IMG/VR virus record: IMGVR_UViG_3300029309_000027
Coordinates: 1 to 61,638 of that record
Strand: one strand, 5' to 3'
Length of the DNA stretch: 61,638 bases
Origin: a virus
Taxonomy: Duplodnaviria > Caudoviricetes
Position 1 is the first letter of the stretch, and the number at the start of each line of letters is the position of its first letter. A program made the position numbers and the translations under genes. Under the pieces are notes generated by a model. It ran no database searches and was not told where the DNA came from. It worked only from the letters and a program-made list of their open reading frames with translations. This document shows positions 14,230-57,656 of the stretch, piece by piece.

Positions 14230-14697
14230 ATGAGTAAAGTAAATCTAGACGTAGCAGAGAAACTAGACATCACCTGCAGACGTGGTGACACTTTCGAGTT
14301 GACTCTTACACTTAAGGATAGTTCAGGCACTGCGTTACCCTTGGTAACAGACGATTACAAATTTCTGATGCAGGTAAGAGCCAGTAAGCTTTTAGTGGCA
14401 AGAGCGCAGCGACGGACGCCAACTGGTGGTGGCGGTGAGGCCGACTCAGAGGATGAATATGGAGAGGATGGAATTGTAATTGGCAGCTCTGGTCAGGGCA
14501 AGCCAGGTAGGTGCAATTTCACTTTCAAAGATCTTGATAATAATGGTAATGTCACTGTGTTTTTGTCTGCCGCTGACATGAGAAAGGTTCCTTCAGGACG
14601 TTATAAATACGACATCCAGTTTCTAAAAGGAGATACCCACAAAACTCTCCTTGAGGGTAGATTCACTGTAAACGAGGATGTCTCAAAGAGTCTGTAA
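14230..14697 (+). CDS. Fibre adaptor/attachment protein (Ig-like)
   Basis: [11 protein letters not shown]...GRYKYDIQ...LEGRFTV pattern; coupled to the fibre gene. Confidence 0.55.
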
Positions 14698-16361
14698 TGT
14701 CAACTCAAGTAACAGTAACAGGGGGGACTAGAGTAACAGTATCAGTACCATCCACTGGATCCGTTTCAGTAATTAGCACTGGTGTAAAGGGGGAGACTGG
14801 GGCCACAGGAGCAACAGGTCCCGCAGGTCCCGCAGGCGCTACGGGCGCTACGGGCGCTACGGGCGCAACAGGTCCAACAGGCGCAACAGGCCCTCAGGGA
14901 CCACAAGGTCCTGCGGGTTCAGATGGTGCCGACGGTGCTGATGGTGGCACAAACATCGTAGTGGATACCTCCCCGCAGCTTGGCGGGGACCTAGATGTAA
15001 ATGGTAATGACATTGTCAGCACTTCCAACGGGGACATTGATATCAAGCCCAATGGAGACGGGAAGGTCAATATAGATAGCTCTAGTTCATCGAGTGGGGT
15101 CAAAATATCAGATGGTCACGTCGAACTAAGAAGTGGCACTGGTAGCCCCGCCAAGATTGACTTTTACTGCGAAAGTGCTGCGGCCCACAAGGTCACAGTT
15201 CAGGCTCCCGCACACGCTAGTTTTTCAGGGGATGTGCAGTTCACCCTCCCAACATCTAACGGCAGTAGCGGTCAGGTATTGAAGACAGATGGGTCTGGAA
15301 ACCTGTCGTATGTAAATCAAACGTCTGACACTCAGCTTACCACCGAGGAAGTCCAAGACATAGCTGGTGGAATGTTCACTGGCAACACCGAAAGTGGTAT
15401 CACTGCGACCTATCAAGACGCGGACGGCACCATCGACTTAGAAGTGGGTGGCCTGACGGTGGCGCAGGGTGGAACAGGCGCCACTTCGTTTGCTGACAAG
15501 TCAGTGTTGATTACGCAGGACAGCGGGACCGATACAGTATCTGCTGCGGCCATGTCCACTAACGGTCAGCTTTTGATTGGGGGGACTAGCGGACCTGCTG
15601 TAGCCACCCTGACGGCTGGTAGCAACGTCACGATTACCAATGCTGACGGAGCCATTACTATTGCTGCCTCAGGTGGTGGTGGTGGTGGTGGCGGTGACAT
15701 CGAGGGTGTTACCGCAGGGGATGGGCTCTCTGGTGGTGGCACCACGGGCACTGTGACTTTGAATGTGGGGGCTGCTCAGACGACAATTACTTCGATCATC
15801 AACAGCAGCCTGACGAAGATTGGTACGGCTACCGATCAAGAGTATATAGACTTCAGCACCGCTGATGAGGTCAACACTAAGATCAATGATACAGAGCGTC
15901 TCAGCGTAACAAACACGGGCGTTGACGTTACTGGTGAGCTCACATCAACAAAGAATGTCTTTGCTAAAACCTCAAACACGGACTTCAGTGTTCAAGGGGA
16001 TATTGTAAAGATTGGGACTGGTAGCACAACTCAAGGCGAATTGTGCTACTACAAATCTGACGGGACTTGGGCTGCAGCCGATGCAGACGCTGCTGCAACT
16101 TCTGGTGGGTGTCTTCTTGCTATCGCGCTCGGCACAGACCCAGATGTTGACGGCATGCTTTTGCGCGGAATGTTCACTAGAGACCACCAAGACGCAAGCC
16201 TGGCTGATGAGCTGTATGTCTCTACTACGGCAGGGGATATTACTGGCACCCCGCCGTCTGGTAACGGTGATGTCGTCCGTGTGGTGGGGTACTGCCTAGA
16301 CAGCACGAATGGTCAGATTTGGTTCAACCCATCAAATGACTTCATTGTCCTGTCAGTATAA
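14697..16361 (+). CDS. Collagen-containing virion fibre protein
   Basis: G-X-Y run; [37 protein letters not shown] and [11 protein letters not shown] fibre motifs. Confidence 0.85.
14790..14945 (+). repeat. Collagen G-X-Y coding repeats including 9-nt tandem ggcgctacg
   Basis: Directly visible. Confidence 0.9.
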
Positions 16362-17671
16362 TGCCAGACATAGCATCATTTAACGGAATCGACGTGGGTA
16401 ATATAGCATCAATAAACGGTCAGACAATTGCCTCGGGAGGAGGGGCTTATAACCCTGTAACTGATAGCGGAACATACACTGAGACGCTCCCCACTTCTGG
16501 GCTGCTAAAGTTTGGTGGGTTCAGGCAGAGTAATGACTCCAGCAGCAACGGCTTCAAATACAATTATGGGGCTGAACCAGTGACAAATCTATCGAGCGAT
16601 AAAGACGCCCAATACGTTAGAGTTGCTGAGTCAAAAAGCGACTTTGTAAAAATTAGCTATGGCAGGTATTCCGCTTTCGCGATCACCGCGTCAGGACAGC
16701 TTTGGGAGATTGGTCAACAATCGAGTTATACGGAAGGGACAGCATCAGACAGTTGGCAGCAAGTCACAGGTGTCGGAGACTCTGATACTGGATGGACAGC
16801 GGTATCTTCTAGTTATCTAGGGGCTTTGGGTATTAACAGCGGCAAGATGTATTACATCGGGGGGAACAGTTATGGGGAGTCGGGAATGGGCAGCACCTCC
16901 ACGAGCTATGGAACTTGGACTCAAGTTGGGTCTGATTCTGACTGGCAAGATGTTAAGAGGGGGAGGTACTACTCTATGGCGACGAAGAGCAGTAGCAATG
17001 TTTTATATGTAGCGGGTAGAAACAGTAAGTACGCGACTGGACTTGACACTACTAGCGGGAACACCACTAGTTGGACTGCTATCAATAGTGACAACTTTAC
17101 CAACACCAACGTAACTTTCTTTACCGTGAATGCAGACGGTGGGTTCTTGATAAGAGGTGGTGAGGTGTACGCTTGGGGGGATGAGGACAGCAACGAAAGG
17201 TTCGGCCTTAACTCCTCGTCAGACTTGACTAAGCCGACCCAAACTGGAAATGTCGGGGGTAGCCTACAAAGCGATTGGGCTCAGGGCTGTCTTGCAAACA
17301 ATGCGATGCTTCTGATCAATACTTCGGGGGAGCTGTATCACGCAGGAGAGGGTACAGCTCGTAGAGGTGACGGCTCCAACACCGACAACAAGGCTGGCAA
17401 CTTTGTTCAAATAGGTAGCGATACAAACTGGGTTAGAGTGGAGGCGGACCCAACTGGTCAAACAACCAATGACTATGGTATGTCTGCACAAAAAGGAAAC
17501 AGGTTGTTCTTCTGGGGGTACAATCAATACTCAGGTGTTATCGACGGGACTTTGAGCAACACTTTTACTGCCACAGAGATTTTTGATCAAGACCTTGCGT
17601 CAGGTGACTACTGGGTTCCATTCTTAAACTATGGAGGCAGCACAAGATATGGGATTGTTGGAATCTACTAA
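16361..17671 (+). CDS. RCC1/BLIP-II-like beta-propeller, putative receptor-binding protein
   Basis: Repeats TQVGSDSDW, QIGSDTNW, GEVYAWG, GxNxYG. Confidence 0.75.
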   Translation: MPDIASFNGIDVGNIASINGQTIASGGGAYNPVTDSGTYTETLPTSGLLKFGGFRQSNDSSSNGFKYNYGAEPVTNLSSDKDAQYVRVAESKSDFVKISYGRYSAFAITASGQLWEIGQQSSYTEGTASDSWQQVTGVGDSDTGWTAVSSSYLGALGINSGKMYYIGGNSYGESGMGSTSTSYGTWTQVGSDSDWQDVKRGRYYSMATKSSSNVLYVAGRNSKYATGLDTTSGNTTSWTAINSDNFTNTNVTFFTVNADGGFLIRGGEVYAWGDEDSNERFGLNSSSDLTKPTQTGNVGGSLQSDWAQGCLANNAMLLINTSGELYHAGEGTARRGDGSNTDNKAGNFVQIGSDTNWVRVEADPTGQTTNDYGMSAQKGNRLFFWGYNQYSGVIDGTLSNTFTATEIFDQDLASGDYWVPFLNYGGSTRYGIVGIY

Positions 17672-22409: not shown

Positions 22410-23825
22410 ATGGCAACTATTGCTGGCGCCATCACTGATGGCCAATCAACCCAAGCTCAGGCGGCACTCGAATTCCGAGCGAACCCTGAAACCTACACCA
22501 CGCTCAACGACCTGATCAAGACGACGAAGGACTTCGTCATGCCTGATCTGGTTGAGACGTTTGGTAACCAAGGCATCACGGGCTTCCTTGAGCTCACTGG
22601 TGCAGTTAAAAGCGGCGGAACCTCCGACCAGATCGACTGGTACGAGGTGGGGCGCCGCCACAGAGTCCTGAACTACACGTCGGGTAACACCTCCGATACG
22701 GGTGCTGGCGTGAGTGTGACCTGCACGGACACTGAAATCGTCAACAACGTTCAGCTCAACGACGTGCTCATGGAAGTCGATACGGGCTCCCGCTTTATCG
22801 TTCAGTCTGGTGGTTTCGGTACGGGCTCTGCTGTGTCTCCTGTGATCCTCGTCACGCTTGACGGTGGCACGTTCGGGTCGACAGACATTGATGTCAGTAC
22901 TAACGGTAGCTTCATCAAGCTGGGCAACATGTACGCTCAAGGTTCTGAGCAGCCTGGTGCCTACAACGAAACTGACGTTCACAAGCGGAGCAACCCGTTC
23001 ATGATTGTCAAGGGTCGTCACGAAGTCAACGGTTCTCAAGCCACGAACATCGGCTGGGTTAACCTCGGTGGCGGTGAGTACCGCTGGTTTATGTACGCAG
23101 AGCAAGAGGCTCGTAAGCGTTTCGAGGACCAGCGTGAAATGATGCTCCTCTTCGGAGAGCAATACATCACTTCTGGGGGTGGCACGAATCTCACGGAAGA
23201 CCTGGCTGGATCTGACGGTTACTTTACGCAAGTAGAGAACTTCGGCATCAACATCACTGGTGCTAACGGCAACCCAATCGACAGCTTCGCAGAGATCGAC
23301 GATATCATCCTCGAGCTCGATAAGGTCGGTGCTCCTGCCGAGTACGCTATGTACTTGAACAGAAAGCAAGACTTGGCTATCGACGACATGCTCGCTTCTG
23401 GTATCGCTACCTCTGTTACGGCTGGTCTGCCTGGTCAGTTTGGTGCTTTCCAAAATCAGCCTGATATTGCCGTCCAGCTCGGATTCAAGAGCTTCACGCG
23501 TGGTGGTTACACCTTCCACAAGCACGACTGGAAGCTGCTGAACGATCCGACTTTGCTCGGTGCCAGCACGGTGTACCAGGGGGCAATGGTCCCGCTGGCC
23601 AACGTGGCTGACCCGCGCACGGGTAACACGGCTCCGTCCCTGGCTATGTACTACAAGGAGGCCAACGGCTACAGCCGTGAGATGGAGCACTGGGTGACTG
23701 GTGGTGGCGTCCTCGGACACAACAACAACGGCGACGCTGGTAAAGACCAAGCGGTCTTCCACTACCGCTCTGAGTGCAACTTGATTGTCCGCGCTGCTAA
23801 CCAGCACGTAGTCATCAAGGGCTAA
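22410..23825 (+). CDS. Major capsid protein
   Basis: 471 aa; follows scaffold; strong codon bias; WYEVGRRH, LGFKSFTRGGYTFHKHDWKLL; 3' stabilising hairpin. Confidence 0.88.
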   Translation: MATIAGAITDGQSTQAQAALEFRANPETYTTLNDLIKTTKDFVMPDLVETFGNQGITGFLELTGAVKSGGTSDQIDWYEVGRRHRVLNYTSGNTSDTGAGVSVTCTDTEIVNNVQLNDVLMEVDTGSRFIVQSGGFGTGSAVSPVILVTLDGGTFGSTDIDVSTNGSFIKLGNMYAQGSEQPGAYNETDVHKRSNPFMIVKGRHEVNGSQATNIGWVNLGGGEYRWFMYAEQEARKRFEDQREMMLLFGEQYITSGGGTNLTEDLAGSDGYFTQVENFGINITGANGNPIDSFAEIDDIILELDKVGAPAEYAMYLNRKQDLAIDDMLASGIATSVTAGLPGQFGAFQNQPDIAVQLGFKSFTRGGYTFHKHDWKLLNDPTLLGASTVYQGAMVPLANVADPRTGNTAPSLAMYYKEANGYSREMEHWVTGGGVLGHNNNGDAGKDQAVFHYRSECNLIVRAANQHVVIKG

Positions 23826-54644: not shown

Positions 54645-54959
54645 TTAGATGTTGTGGATGCCACCCATCTCTTCGATGTATTCCTCCATGACCTCTCGGT
54701 CATCGATGTCTCGCCAGTGAATCTTGCGGTCGTCATACATCGGGTGGGCGTGACCTTCCAGCCACCGCTCGAGTACCCACTCCACGAACTTTGGGTAGCT
54801 ATGAGTGACGAAACTCCATTGGTCTTCACCTGCGAGGCCCGTGCCGTGGTTCTCGGTGACAGCCCACCATCCAATCAGCCCCCGCATACTGCCGATGTTC
54901 TCAACGGCTTCGATGTCTCTCTGTACTGTCTCCAGTACGCGCTTGTCAAAATGCTTCAT
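54645..54959 (-). CDS. Hypothetical protein
   Basis: 104 aa. Confidence 0.65.
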   Translation of the reverse strand: MKHFDKRVLETVQRDIEAVENIGSMRGLIGWWAVTENHGTGLAGEDQWSFVTHSYPKFVEWVLERWLEGHAHPMYDDRKIHWRDIDDREVMEEYIEEMGGIHNI

Positions 54960-54963
54960 AGCT

Positions 54964-55104
54964 TCATTTTTCGTGTGCGTGATACCATAGCTTTCGGGTC
55001 ACCACGGGGACTACCCATATGGTGTCAGTGACAGGGTCTTTGTACTCCAGCCAATCGCCCTCATCCTTGAGGAATACAAGGCGCTTTTGAATTTCTTCAT
55101 TCAT
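54964..55104 (-). CDS. 46-aa hypothetical protein (absent from ORF track)
   Basis: MNEEIQKRLVFLKDEGDWLEYKDPVTDTIWVVPVVTRKLWYHAHEK fills the gap. Confidence 0.55.
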   Translation of the reverse strand: MNEEIQKRLVFLKDEGDWLEYKDPVTDTIWVVPVVTRKLWYHAHEK

Positions 55105-55291
55105 GATTGTTTATGATATCGTCGGGTCCATCAAAGATTGCTTTATCGACTTCCTCTAACGGAGTGTTGTCAAGTCGGTCCAGCCTGTCCTGAAGCGCGT
55201 CACGCAGGTCAGAGTAGGTCAGGTCAGAAGCATCTTGCTTCTCGTGTTGCGCCTCGAAGGCGATGGTGAATACGGAGATGTACTTCTTCAT
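55097..55291 (-). CDS. Hypothetical protein
   Basis: 64 aa. Confidence 0.65.
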   Translation of the reverse strand: MKKYISVFTIAFEAQHEKQDASDLTYSDLRDALQDRLDRLDNTPLEEVDKAIFDGPDDIINNHE

Positions 55292-55294
55292 GTT

Positions 55295-55495
55295 TCAGTA
55301 ATCAGGTGATTCGTGTATGATAAATTCTTCGATGCACTCGTACTCGCTTTTGGTTTCGACGTTGTACTTGGATTCAAGAAACTCTTTGTATATCTCGGAT
55401 GCTAGCCCCCACTTGGTGTCGAGAGCTTGGTCAACTAAGGAGTCGTCACGACATTCCAACAGGTGGAGCGTAACGTATATGTAGTACGGGTTCAT
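55295..55495 (-). CDS. Hypothetical protein
   Basis: Start MNPYYIY; KSEYECIEEF. Confidence 0.6.
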   Translation of the reverse strand: MNPYYIYVTLHLLECRDDSLVDQALDTKWGLASEIYKEFLESKYNVETKSEYECIEEFIIHESPDY

Positions 55496-55662
55496 GCTTG
55501 CTCGTTTTTCCATTGGTCAGCGCGAAAGGCGGTTTCCGCTTTTGAGATTTCGACGTAGACCTCGAAGCCTACGTGAACGTATACCGACCCGTCTTTTTCG
55601 TATGCGTCCACATCAATAGACTCGAAGTGCTTGAGGCAATCCTTTATTACAATCTTGTTCAT
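55492..55662 (-). CDS. 56-aa hypothetical protein (absent from ORF track)
   Basis: MNKIVIKDCLKHF...WKNEQA; ATGA overlap with the next gene. Confidence 0.6.
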   Translation of the reverse strand: MNKIVIKDCLKHFESIDVDAYEKDGSVYVHVGFEVYVEISKAETAFRADQWKNEQA

Positions 55663-55676
55663 GTGTTCTGTGTTTG

Positions 55677-55771
55677 TGATGCGGGAGGGAATCGAACCCT
55701 CCAGTGTAATCTGTCACTTGGGCATTCGCGTTACCCGACTGGAACCATACACTTTCCGCCACTTCGCATCA
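55677..55771 (-). ncRNA. tRNA-like RNA lacking a D-stem, with an extended anticodon arm
   Basis: TGATGCG/CGCATCA acceptor; GAGGG-TTCGATT-CCCTC T-arm; AGTGTA/TACACT helix. Confidence 0.7.
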
Positions 55772-55774
55772 TGT

Positions 55775-55968
55775 AGTAGGCGCTTGGCTCTTCGGCGGCC
55801 TACCGTGTGAGTAACTCTCAAGACATTACCTGTCGGGAAACCCGATATAATGTGAGAGTATAAACCTTGCCCCTGTCGAACCCAGTCGGGGTATTTCTCA
55901 CGCCGCTCATCCGTGGAGTGTCAGCTCCCGATGAGTGTTGCACTTCTGTCTGACACATATGCAACAGG
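55775..55968 (-). ncRNA. Putative structured RNA with kissing loop
   Basis: Five helices in a 200-nt gene-free gap; loop-loop complementarity TGTCAG/CTGACA; strand inferred from context. Confidence 0.55.
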
Positions 55969-55973
55969 TGTGT

Positions 55974-56420
55974 TTATCTTCTTCTCTTCCTGCGAACCTC
56001 CCCTGTGATAGGATGCGTGTTGCAATCCGATGCTCTCAGCCCTCGGTCATTAGCCCCTCTCTTCTTCTTCCGCTTGGCTCCCACGGGTGCAGGGGTGTCG
56101 AGCACTAGCTTGATCCCGCCTGGCAGGTGGGAGCGGAACTGCTTCATCTCCTCCTTAGTGGCTCCCCACTTCCCCACCCCTGTCATCAGCAGTTCCTGAA
56201 TGTCCTCCGAGTGTATGTGCGCTCGGAAGTAGGACGCCGCTCGACGGAGGGTCATCGCAGGTCCTCTCACCTTGTCCATCTCCTCATGCGTCATCGTGTT
56301 CCTCCACTCTGAACGAGGGCCGTGAACCCTGACGCAGAATTCCATCTCCTGCCTCGCTCTGTCTTCCAACACCTCGGCCATGTGCATGTCGAGGTGTACG
56401 GTTCGTGTGTACATATTCAT
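55974..56420 (-). CDS. Hypothetical protein with basic C-terminus
   Basis: 148 aa between RNA elements. Confidence 0.65.
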   Translation of the reverse strand: MNMYTRTVHLDMHMAEVLEDRARQEMEFCVRVHGPRSEWRNTMTHEEMDKVRGPAMTLRRAASYFRAHIHSEDIQELLMTGVGKWGATKEEMKQFRSHLPGGIKLVLDTPAPVGAKRKKKRGANDRGLRASDCNTHPITGEVRRKRRR

Positions 56421-56435
56421 TTGTTCTCGTGTTTG

Positions 56436-56508
56436 TGCCCGTGGCAGGAATCGAACCTGCGACCGACTGCTTAGAAGGCAGTTGCTCTATCCCCTGAGCT
56501 ACACGGGC
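56436..56508 (-). tRNA. tRNA-Arg(UCU), no encoded CCA
   Basis: GCCCGTG acceptor; GCTC/GAGC D-arm; ACTGC-CTTCTAA-GCAGT anticodon arm; GCAGG-TTCGATT-CCTGC T-arm. Confidence 0.95.
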
Positions 56509-56628
56509 GAACGGGGGGAGTCCCTAAACCCTCCCCCCTGGCATACTTCGAGGGACCAATCTCACGCTATGCTAAACGCTACAATGTGGGTTGCCCACAA
56601 GTTTAGTTGTGGGGTCCCCCCAACTGTC

Positions 56629-57108
56629 CTACAAATCGGACTCTTTAGTTGGGTCAAGGAGGTACTCACGTCCGCCAGTAATGCGGTATATACGTTGGTC
56701 TGTCTGCGCTTTCTTGTGAATCTCTCGGATGTCCGACTCAATACGGGCAACACGAACGAGATAACCTGTGAAATGATCGCTGTGTGGAGCCACCCTATGG
56801 ATCTGAACCCCATAGCTACTTGGGTCCACGTTGAACTCAGTAGCGAGAGCCTGACCACGCAGAATTAGTTCGTGCCACGCCTCAAACCCACCCGCCAAGT
56901 TCAACCGTTCGGTGCGTGTACCTCGTTCGAAGAAGAAGTATCCGTATGACACAGGGTTGAGGAAGACATCGCACGAGACAATGTCTTGTCCGAAGGCAAG
57001 GCATCTACCACCAGACTCAGCAAAAACCCTAGTCGTTGCGTTGCAGTGAAGCAGCTTCGGGGTGTAGTCTTGGAAGGCAACGCCTTCGTCAGGTATGTGT
57101 TCACTCAT
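56629..57108 (-). CDS. Hypothetical protein
   Basis: 159 aa. Confidence 0.6.
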   Translation of the reverse strand: MSEHIPDEGVAFQDYTPKLLHCNATTRVFAESGGRCLAFGQDIVSCDVFLNPVSYGYFFFERGTRTERLNLAGGFEAWHELILRGQALATEFNVDPSSYGVQIHRVAPHSDHFTGYLVRVARIESDIREIHKKAQTDQRIYRITGGREYLLDPTKESDL

Positions 57109-57280
57109 CTTCTTCAGGGAAAAAATAGGGTTTCACCTTGTCCATAAATCTTGCGCATCGACGCAGGTCTTCGCTGACAGGTGTGCCAGTCATACGCTTG
57201 GTGTCCAACTCTGCACGAAGAGACTCGTATGCTTCGTCAAAGTCAGACCCTGCAATTTTCTTGGAATTATGTTTAGCCAT
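57101..57280 (-). CDS. Hypothetical protein
   Basis: Probable start MAKHNSKK. Confidence 0.55.
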   Translation of the reverse strand: MAKHNSKKIAGSDFDEAYESLRAELDTKRMTGTPVSEDLRRCARFMDKVKPYFFPEEDE

Positions 57281-57656
57281 AGTGTGTGCCGATTGCTTGT
57301 TCAACTGTCAAGTTGTGTAGGGTTCTCGAAGGGCGGACTTCCCATTGGTCTACATCCTCCGTGAGGCGAACGCACTGACCATCTCGCGTGTATGCCACGG
57401 GGTGGCCGCTTTCGTCTACGTCGTCATAAGGGAAGGTGGTGTAACAATAATCGTCCTCCCACTCATGGAGCACCCATTCATCACTTGCAGGTGCACCTGA
57501 CATGGTCACCCAATCGCCTTCGAACCTCTCTCGGAGTCGTTGTAGTAGCGCCTCTTCACTGGCATACACCTCAGTGTCGAACGCGAGGTAGCCCGTTATG
57601 AACCCCTTGCCCGTAACACTGCACTTGCGGGGGAATATTTCAATGTACTGATTCAT
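57273..57656 (-). CDS. Hypothetical protein
   Basis: FPRKCSVTGKGFITGY motif. Confidence 0.65.
   Translation of the reverse strand: MNQYIEIFPRKCSVTGKGFITGYLAFDTEVYASEEALLQRLRERFEGDWVTMSGAPASDEWVLHEWEDDYCYTTFPYDDVDESGHPVAYTRDGQCVRLTEDVDQWEVRPSRTLHNLTVEQAIGTHYG

Follow-up and report, generated by a model that had tools for sequence, protein, structure and literature searches.

The complete 61,638-bp virus record IMGVR_UViG_3300029309_000027 (Duplodnaviria; Caudoviricetes), called the window below and always meant at its full length, carries on its minus strand a 95-nt tRNA-like element at positions 55677-55771. Read from 55771 to 55677, its sequence is UGAUGCGAAGUGGCGGAAAGUGUAUGGUUCCAGUCGGGUAACGCGAAUGCCCAAGUGACAGAUUACACUGGAGGGUUCGAUUCCCUCCCGCAUCA; counted from G1, it is 94 nt long. 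The element keeps the parts that form the acceptor end and the elbow of a tRNA, namely an acceptor stem, a canonical T-arm (GGUUCGAUUCC) and a GG-bearing substitute for the D-loop, and it is divided as follows.

55677..55771, minus strand: the 95-nt tRNA-like element, with U(-1) at 55771, G1 at 55770 and the discriminator A at 55677
55764..55770, minus strand: acceptor 5' strand GAUGCGA, forming 6 bp with 55678-55684; A7 stands opposite C66 as a mismatch
55737..55760, minus strand: D-like arm GGCGGAA / AGUGUAUGG / UUCC-A-GUC, the 3' end of the loop being GG; present in the minimum free energy (MFE) and centroid folds, pair probability ~0.7
55720..55736, minus strand: anticodon-like hairpin GGGUA-ACGCGAA-UGCCC, which would read GCG and has C33, not U33; pair probability 0.8-0.9
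55703..55718, minus strand: variable-arm-like hairpin AGUG-ACAGAUUA-CACU; pair probability 0.74-0.79
55685..55701, minus strand: T-arm GAGGG-UUCGAUU-CCCUC; pair probability 0.99, matching the T-arm of the tRNA-Sec and tRNA models
55677..55684, minus strand: acceptor 3' strand CCGCAUC and discriminator A, read from the sequence

A preliminary description of this locus had placed and read the element correctly, the reverse complement of 55677-55771 being UGAUGCG...CGCAUCA, and all the helices it listed are complementary: the 7-bp UGAUGCG/CGCAUCA, the 6-bp AGUGUA/UACACU, GUC/GAC, the 5-bp hairpin GGGUA/UGCCC (one G-U pair, loop ACGCGAA) and the 6-bp GGAGGG/CCCUCC (loop UUCGAUU). Folding does not favour its view that the RNA has no D-stem and forms one elongated arm. 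The MFE and centroid structures are a four-arm cloverleaf of -33.6 kcal/mol, made up of the acceptor stem, a D-like arm (7 bp, one bulge, 9-nt loop ending in GG), the anticodon-like 5-bp/7-nt hairpin, the 4-bp variable-arm-like hairpin and the T-arm, compared with -29.4 kcal/mol for the elongated arm. Acceptor and T-arm pair with a probability of 0.98-1.0, and the D-like and variable-arm-like arms with 0.7-0.8, against 0.15-0.17 for the long helix of the elongated structure; the best structure containing this long helix lies only 1.2 kcal/mol above the MFE. The 95-nt form has the same sequence in all three of its sources (the window and the loci L092 and L089), and covariation therefore cannot choose between the two folds.

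The borders of the element were set by comparison. A trailer CAAACAC starts directly after A55677, as it does after the discriminator of a genuine tRNA-Arg (at 56436) 760 nt upstream, and in locus L097 the U before G1 is replaced by a C. This C cannot pair with A73, which makes G1-C72 the first acceptor pair. The trailer and the L097 base both point to G55770 as position 1 and to A55677 as the discriminator. CCA is not encoded at the 3' end of the element as read from the sequence, and no CCA-adding enzyme was found in the phage record.

The thermodynamic signal of the whole element is modest, with a z-score of -2.16 and 7 of 200 shuffled sequences folding equally well. When we scanned for a T-loop and 5-bp T-stem with an adjoining 7-nt acceptor, we obtained 128 matches from 121 sources, a number that includes genuine tRNAs and nested alternatives, and none in shuffled copies. 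The T-arm-like hairpins left uncalled by ARAGORN include 43 unique ones; of these, 37 have adjoining acceptor pairing, compared with 4, 2, 1, 11 and 4 in controls with a shifted 3' strand. The acceptor-plus-T-arm signature is far from chance, and the element is real.

Standard detectors miss it. Run with default settings over the whole window, ARAGORN called a single tRNA, tRNA-Arg(UCU) at 56435-56508 on the minus strand, and no tmRNA, leaving the element uncalled; Rfam at gathering thresholds returned the same single tRNA and no family matching the element. Neither program thus gives a high-scoring standard tRNA or known Rfam family, a check that the preliminary description had named. With the cutoff relaxed to E ≤ 10, the best Rfam match is tRNA-Sec (RF01852) with 22.5 bits (E = 0.13), and the RF00005 match scored lower and was dropped. 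The gathering score of tRNA-Sec is 47 and GCG aligns in place of the UCA anticodon; the element is not a tRNA-Sec. It has the 7-bp acceptor, with the A-C mismatch at 7:66, and the 5-bp T-stem with a GTTCRANYC loop of a canonical tRNA, a class rejected on account of C33 instead of U33 in the loop ACGCGAA, a linker of 3 nt instead of 2 nt from the acceptor to the D-like arm, a 7-bp bulged D-like arm in place of a 3-4-bp D-stem with a standard D-loop, and the sub-threshold scores.

We also compared the element with tmRNA and bacterial Y RNA, to which the preliminary description had likened its topology. ARAGORN found no tmRNA with default or 80% thresholds and Rfam gave no tmRNA match on the element; as already noted in that description, there is no G3-U70 pair, position 3:70 being U-A, and no tag reading frame, or any ORF, within the element. 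No Y-RNA-type Rfam family (YrlA) matched the element at E ≤ 10, and a search for the Ro60/TROVE domain (PF05731) gave 0 matches in the complete phage record. The likeness thus holds as an analogy of architecture and fails as an assignment to either class, and the element is outside every curated RNA family. The label 'tRNA mimic' proved apt for an RNA that keeps acceptor stem, T-arm and the GG-bearing D-loop substitute and fails tRNA detectors at normal thresholds.

The last 26 nt of the element occur twice in the viral contig L080, within two much smaller elements with the same acceptor and T-arm. A search with the 3' 22 nt, one position being free, identified 27 metagenome loci in addition to viral loci, giving with the window 37 instances in 31 sources. 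The T-arm is common to all of them by ascertainment, as the 3' pattern was exact; the complementary 5' strand GAUGCG lies outside the pattern and is present in 37 of 37. The 15 unique sequences have lengths from G1 of 41, 44, 45, 61-62, 74 and 94 nt, the window element being the longest. They begin with GAUGCGA-A(U/C)GGUU (GAUGCGA-AGUGG in the 94-nt form), end with GAGGGUUCGA(U/G)UCCCUCCCGCAUCA throughout and differ only in the middle, which holds nothing, one hairpin or the pseudo-cloverleaf. The single hairpins stay paired despite changes on one side (GACCCC/GGGGUC, GGCCCC/GGGGUC, GACCCC/GGGGUU), and the sole hairpin of the 61-62-nt members sits where the variable-arm-like hairpin (55703-55718) sits in the window. 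Three sources have the pseudo-cloverleaf form: the window, L092, where the sequence context is the same, and L089, which is another phage with the element in a different slot. Two copies each occur in L080, L095, L101, L102, L103 and L110. Every mimic is preceded, 1-5 nt upstream, by a stable hairpin.

Hence, what had been described as a singular oddity with a displaced anticodon hairpin is a member of a family in which the middle is a dispensable variable insert; the anticodon arm is missing from 8 of the 15 unique sequences, those of 41-45 nt, which are the commonest members. Invariant across the family are the acceptor stem (6 bp and the 7:66 mismatch), a short GG-bearing linker and the canonical T-arm. 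These features extend beyond the sequence pattern. After removal of 47 tRNAs called by ARAGORN, the structural scan left 51 elements from related phages, which represent 29 unique sequences and 14 acceptor types, and among the unique ones GG follows within 10 nt of the acceptor 5' strand in 25, against a background frequency of 0.33, and the 7:66 mismatch is present in 24, although the scan required neither. Mimics of different acceptor families were misaligned by MAFFT in their 5' parts, and pair counts do not include that alignment. We conclude that the window element belongs to a phage family of tRNA 'top-half' mimics, as a form enlarged by a dispensable pseudo-cloverleaf insert.

When a covariance model of the short forms is applied to the window element, the alignment runs through the internal ACGCGAAUG. 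Within 55720-55764 (minus strand), the internal GCGAAUG of the element repeats the GCGAAUG of the family 5' end. The alignment suggests that the 95-nt form may have arisen from a ~57-nt one-hairpin form through a 38-nt insertion flanked by GCGAA. The model, built from 7 short mimics, detected no second element in the window, where the best other match (14.1 bits, E = 0.48) is inside a coding region, and only 3 convincing elements outside its training set (L049, L061 and L046) in 78 loci encoding DUF7178 proteins. The same 78 loci gave no blastn match to the 95-nt element. When 55400-56700 was compared by blastn with 50,697 GenBank phage records, only the genuine tRNA-Arg was matched, with at most 8% query cover, and no annotated relative was found.

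The element lies between a conserved structured RNA and a short ORF, in this arrangement.

55492..55662, minus strand: downstream 56-aa ORF (MNKIVIKDCLKHF...), no PHROG family
55663..55676, minus strand: 14-nt CA-rich leader CAAACACAGAACAC upstream of the 56-aa ORF, without Shine-Dalgarno sequence
55776..55970, minus strand: conserved structured non-coding RNA of 195 nt, ending 5 nt before G1 of the tRNA-like element
55974..56420, minus strand: upstream 148-aa ORF (MNMYTRTVHL...) with a basic C-terminus, no PHROG family
56436..56508, minus strand: genuine tRNA-Arg(UCU), called by ARAGORN (at 56435-56508) and scoring 73.8 bits with Rfam

A near-identical CA-rich leader (CAAACACGAGAACAA), likewise without Shine-Dalgarno sequence, follows the genuine tRNA-Arg at 56421-56434 (minus strand). 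Mimics and genuine tRNAs exchange slots. In L089, tRNA-Arg(UCU) stands between the small RNA and the ORF MNKIVIKDCLKHF..., the place of the 95-nt element in the window, and the 95-nt element is on the opposite side of the small RNA; conversely, the tRNA-Arg(UCU) slot of the window, upstream of the ORF MNMYTRT..., is occupied by a 41-45-nt mimic in L086, L101, L103, L106, L109 and L110. In 23 of 38 unique element contexts, an ATG that opens at least 40 codons lies within the next 45 nt, and in 7 others the small RNA comes directly after the element (30 of 38 in total). Leaderless mRNAs appeared as candidates at L104, L105 and L108, where an ATG stands 1 nt after the discriminator, and were rejected as the ORF of at least 40 codons starts later, at an offset of 26. 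Neither the leader motif CAAACACRGAACA (3 occurrences, 3.25 expected) nor the loop motif GCTGACAC (3 occurrences, 2.82 expected) is enriched in the window. PHROG and Pfam searches assigned no family to seven small neighbouring ORFs. A G/C-rich hairpin (GGGGGGAGGGUUUAGGGACUCCCCCC) at 56513-56545 (minus strand), a few nt upstream of the genuine tRNA-Arg, parallels the hairpins before the mimics.

The presence of a tRNA-Arg in this slot in relatives is one of the observations that speak for an aberrant, class-II-like decoding tRNA-Arg(GCG) supplementing the host for CGY codons. ARAGORN at 90% thresholds indeed calls the element tRNA-Arg(gcg), the MFE cloverleaf has a 5-bp/7-nt anticodon-like arm, and CGU and CGC make up 35% of the Arg codons in 49 ORFs. 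However, the relaxed call needs another 5' strand (GUGGCGG) with 2 mismatches in 7 pairs, the element fails the ARAGORN default and the Rfam tRNA threshold with 22.5 bits (tRNA-Sec) as the best match in the tRNA clan, it has C33, no canonical D-arm and 3 nt between acceptor and D-like arm, and more than half of the unique family sequences (8/15) present the same scaffold without an anticodon arm. We regard a decoding function as most unlikely.

The exchange of positions also bears on explanations at the DNA level, according to which the element would represent a tRNA pseudogene in decay, a host-tRNA fragment of the attP type or a repeat serving only as a recombination point for module shuffling. 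That the identical 95-nt element stands on one side of the small RNA in L089 and on the other in the window is in keeping with such a repeat, and identical flanks could drive gene conversion between copies. On the other hand, pairing, GG motif and T-loop are kept across 14 acceptor types and the insert hairpin stays paired, which decay would not preserve. No exact match to the 3' half of the element was found among 185,579 prokaryotic species, each represented by one genome, and the complete record contains 0 matches to tyrosine integrase (PF00589) and 0 to serine recombinase (PF00239); the attP/host-tRNA fragment was rejected on these results. Taken as a group, the DNA-level explanations appear highly improbable to us.

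The 195-nt RNA next to the element is itself conserved. We found 20 complete copies and 1 truncated copy in 21 sources, representing 12 unique sequences of 151-196 nt, with a short form of 151-161 nt. Its consensus structure comprises 39 pairs, of which 7 show compensatory double changes, and the loops CUGACA and GCCGAAR..GCCAA of two hairpins are conserved; no Rfam family matched. Within a few bases of their 3' ends, 10 of the 20 complete copies have a genuine tRNA-Arg (8 CCU and 2 UCU, one of the tRNA-Arg(CCU) being cut by the end of locus L094) and the other 10 a mimic (3 of 41 nt, 5 of 44 nt and 2 of 94 nt). On the 5' side, the first base of the small RNA comes directly after the discriminator of a mimic in 13 of the 21 copies and of a genuine tRNA(CAU) in 2; the remaining 6, including the window, have the stop of an ORF just upstream. 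The 78 loci with DUF7178 proteins gave no nhmmer match to the small RNA. Further matches to the pattern CACCTGTTGCNNNNGTGTCAGA in L112-L119 were rejected as coding regions without small RNA, and those in the prokaryotic genome contigs L120-L122 as chance matches (nhmmer E = 0.12-0.53).

Metatranscriptome run X19 contains a 166-nt contig that matches 55807-55970 with 0 mismatches and ends at 55970, where the small RNA is predicted to begin. A contig from run X20, which is labelled as a metatranscriptome and is probably DNA, stops at 55969, and the DNA contigs X5 and X9 continue through 55970. Together, these contigs give a faint indication that the small RNA exists as a discrete and abundant species; those of X19 and X20 cover neither the element nor the flanking ORFs and are uninformative on their expression.

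The first 50 nt of the small RNA (55921-55970, minus strand) show a coding-like substitution pattern. In the frame PVAYVS(D/E)R(S/G)ATL(I/V)(G/R)(S/G)-stop, codon position 3 accounts for 8 of the 12 variable columns, position 1 for 4 and position 2 for none, and the UGA stop lies within the CUGACA hairpin loop. This signal is not decisive because 6 of the 12 variable columns are also explained by compensatory pairing. The tag of tmRNA ends with a stop codon in a hairpin loop, to which the mini frame can be likened. Minihelices and bracketed small RNA together might thus be imagined as a phage-made split tmRNA analogue, or another trans-acting tRNA mimic, in which the excised minihelix would receive CCA and perhaps an amino acid; if so, the phage would manipulate host translation or tRNA-directed defence, beyond the cutting of transcripts. 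We consider this very unlikely.

RNase P, RNase Z and the CCA-adding enzyme recognise the top half of a tRNA, formed by acceptor and T-arm, and the elbow. The GG of the linker can substitute for the D-loop at the elbow. The element has a tRNA-like fold with acceptor stem and T-arm and no decoding capacity, and it and its relatives are positioned at the borders of mature RNAs and are interchangeable with genuine tRNAs, as are t-elements. It is probably a t-element-like processing signal for RNase P and RNase Z. The fold family, with its conservation, its positions and its interchange with tRNAs, is observed; co-transcription, two cleavages and the fate of the by-product are what we infer. The element would lie inside an early operon on the minus strand and be transcribed together with the small RNA and the following ORF; in keeping with this, the minus strand of 54800-57300 showed neither a sigma-70-like promoter nor a terminator. 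Host RNase P would cut between U55771 and G55770, so that the upstream small RNA would end just after its terminal hairpin, and RNase Z or an equivalent enzyme would cut after the discriminator A55677, leaving the downstream mRNA with the 14-nt CA-rich leader. A tRNA-like by-product of ~94 nt would be set free and may receive CCA. Genuine phage tRNAs would serve the same cutting function in the same slots, and this would explain why tRNAs and mimics are interchangeable among relatives.

Alternatively, the fold might remain uncleaved, either at the start of the downstream mRNA or at the 3' terminus of the small RNA, and protect the RNA that carries it by blocking an exonuclease or a 5'-end-dependent RNase. 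The position directly upstream of short leaders and the very stable acceptor and T helices are compatible with such an end-protector, but a genuine tRNA in the same slot can function only once it has been cut out, and after a cut the stable hairpin before each element would already protect the upstream 3' end. Protection without cleavage thus seems quite unlikely.

Several points weigh against a processing signal. The window copy of the small RNA lacks a tRNA-like element at its 5' border, where the stop of an ORF is located 3 nt upstream, and its 5' end would therefore need another nuclease. The contig from the RNA library leaves the tRNA-like element uncovered, and contigs cannot define ends. 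The host's set of RNase P and RNase Z enzymes is an assumption. With three identical sources, the insert of the 95-nt form is beyond a covariation test, and the constancy of the 3' half is not independent evidence because the search used an exact pattern. Finally, acceptor and T-arm are perfectly identical across otherwise diverged phages, and such identity may mean a sequence-specific partner and not a purely structural signal.

This last point leads to the possibility that the released tRNA-like RNA, with or without CCA, is itself functional, as a trans-acting small RNA or as a decoy or sponge for host factors acting on tRNA acceptor ends or elbows, for example tRNA-targeting defence nucleases or modifying toxins; processing would then be merely the production route. 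Acceptor and T-arm are identical where flanking genes and the small RNA have diverged (with the 3' half fixed by the search pattern), six loci have two copies each, and the GG elbow motif is present in 25 of 29 unique sequences. Yet genuine tRNAs of quite different sequence replace mimics in the same slots, which is expected of a positional signal and not of a sequence-specific decoy, and the elements stand almost always exactly at borders of cistrons or small RNAs. A PHROG and Pfam search of neighbouring ORFs identified no defence or anti-defence gene beside the elements. We judge a function of the released RNA unlikely and favour the processing signal.

Known systems offer several parallels to such a signal. 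Forner et al. 2007 (PMC1920247) propose the t-elements of plant mitochondria as cis-signals for RNase P and/or RNase Z; like the phage elements, these are tRNA-like folds without decoding function at the 5' or 3' ends of other transcripts, and they share slots with genuine tRNAs in polycistronic transcripts. They are organellar, whereas the phage elements are viral, mostly 41-45 nt long, have a constant acceptor and T-arm, and would be cleaved as predicted from their structure and position. Work on the Haloferax icrRNA (PMC6546412) describes t-elements on both sides of an RNA that release it precisely through RNase Z and RNase P. The order of tRNA-like element, RNA and tRNA-like element is the same, with the RNA starting and ending at the element borders, but that case is an engineered construct in an archaeon, and the phage arrangement is natural and known from sequence alone.

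A tRNA-like fold also follows the non-coding RNAs MALAT1 and MEN-beta, where RNase P cleavage of mascRNA and menRNA is reported to make the mature 3' end (PMC8457004, PMC11693755). For mascRNA, a role as a small RNA with another partner has also been proposed. RF01684 (mascRNA/menRNA) gives the best non-tRNA scores of the 41-nt and 61-nt relatives, 21.3 and 19.5 bits against a threshold of 42.5, and the 95-nt element itself has no RF01684 match in the Rfam search at E ≤ 10. The systems are alike in that a small tRNA-like fold follows a non-coding RNA; mascRNA and menRNA belong to a eukaryotic nuclear system, and the phage elements, far below threshold, show no homology to them.

The tRNA-like domain of tmRNA shares the acceptor stem, T-arm and GG-bearing D-loop substitute, and the short phage members lack an anticodon arm. 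However, the acceptor strands of the phage elements are contiguous in one small hairpin and not at the ends of a long RNA, and G3-U70 is absent; in the Rfam search of family relatives, tmRNA appeared only as an 11.7-bit local match to the T-arm. In animal mitochondrial transcripts, tRNA punctuation marks the cuts between neighbouring RNAs, and murine gammaherpesvirus 68 has tRNA-linked small RNAs with tRNA-like folds as cutting marks. In both, as proposed here, tRNAs or tRNA-like folds divide neighbouring RNAs of one transcript, but hosts and polymerases differ and the dividing units are full tRNAs or pol III tRNA-like genes.

A full-text literature search, with subscription journals and supplementary files outside its scope, returned the organellar, archaeal and MALAT1 precedents and nothing on such elements in bacteriophages. 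The new findings are the pseudo-cloverleaf form of 95 nt, the way in which mimic and tRNA-Arg replace each other slot for slot, and the small RNA between such elements. If the elements are processing signals, tRNA punctuation as in mitochondria, plant t-elements and MALAT1 would extend to viruses of marine bacteria, and the retention of some phage tRNA genes may owe as much to RNA processing as to decoding. This would give a reason for single odd tRNAs in the middle of early operons of phages, and the elements would supply the precise excision of a conserved, so far undescribed structured RNA of 150-200 nt. Standard annotation skips the whole class because ARAGORN and Rfam miss all of its members.

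Two further hairpin features were seen in relatives. A second conserved, hairpin-rich segment of ~70 nt (CCCAUCGGAGGCUGUAUCCGAU..GGGAGGACGCUCCU..ACAGGCAGAACCUGU) is present on the minus strand of L080 (1-75), L094 (2228-2295) and L104 (680-748), where it directly precedes members of another tRNA-like family, whose acceptor is AGACACA or GACACAU. The segment may represent a further small RNA with the same mode of release. In L080 (9310-9325, minus strand), L084, L085 and L088, a hairpin GAGGG-CUGACA-CCCUC stands 1 nt before a 61-62-nt mimic. Its loop has the sequence of the loop of small-RNA hairpin P2, and the CUGACA-loop hairpin may be a shared protein-binding site.

The phage itself, an uncultured marine virus, encodes a recognisable terminase, portal protein, primase-helicase, RecE-like exonuclease and Sak-type annealing protein, and belongs to a phage group without a cultured member. 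Its capsid-type protein (22410-23825, plus strand) matches 85 phage records, all with less than 60% identity (best 31.9%); by name, 68 of these are phages of Flavobacterium, 15 of Cellulophaga and 1 of Maribacter, and 1 is an uncultured Caudoviricetes. Because of these matches to Flavobacterium, Cellulophaga and Maribacter phages, our best guess is a host within the Bacteroidota, which would fit the CA-rich leaders without Shine-Dalgarno sequence. Pfam searches returned nothing for 5 of the 10 large proteins. At 14697-17671 (plus strand), two adjacent large proteins, the first of the pair named here having a collagen triple-helix repeat and the other RCC1-like repeats, are probably tail fibre or receptor-binding proteins.

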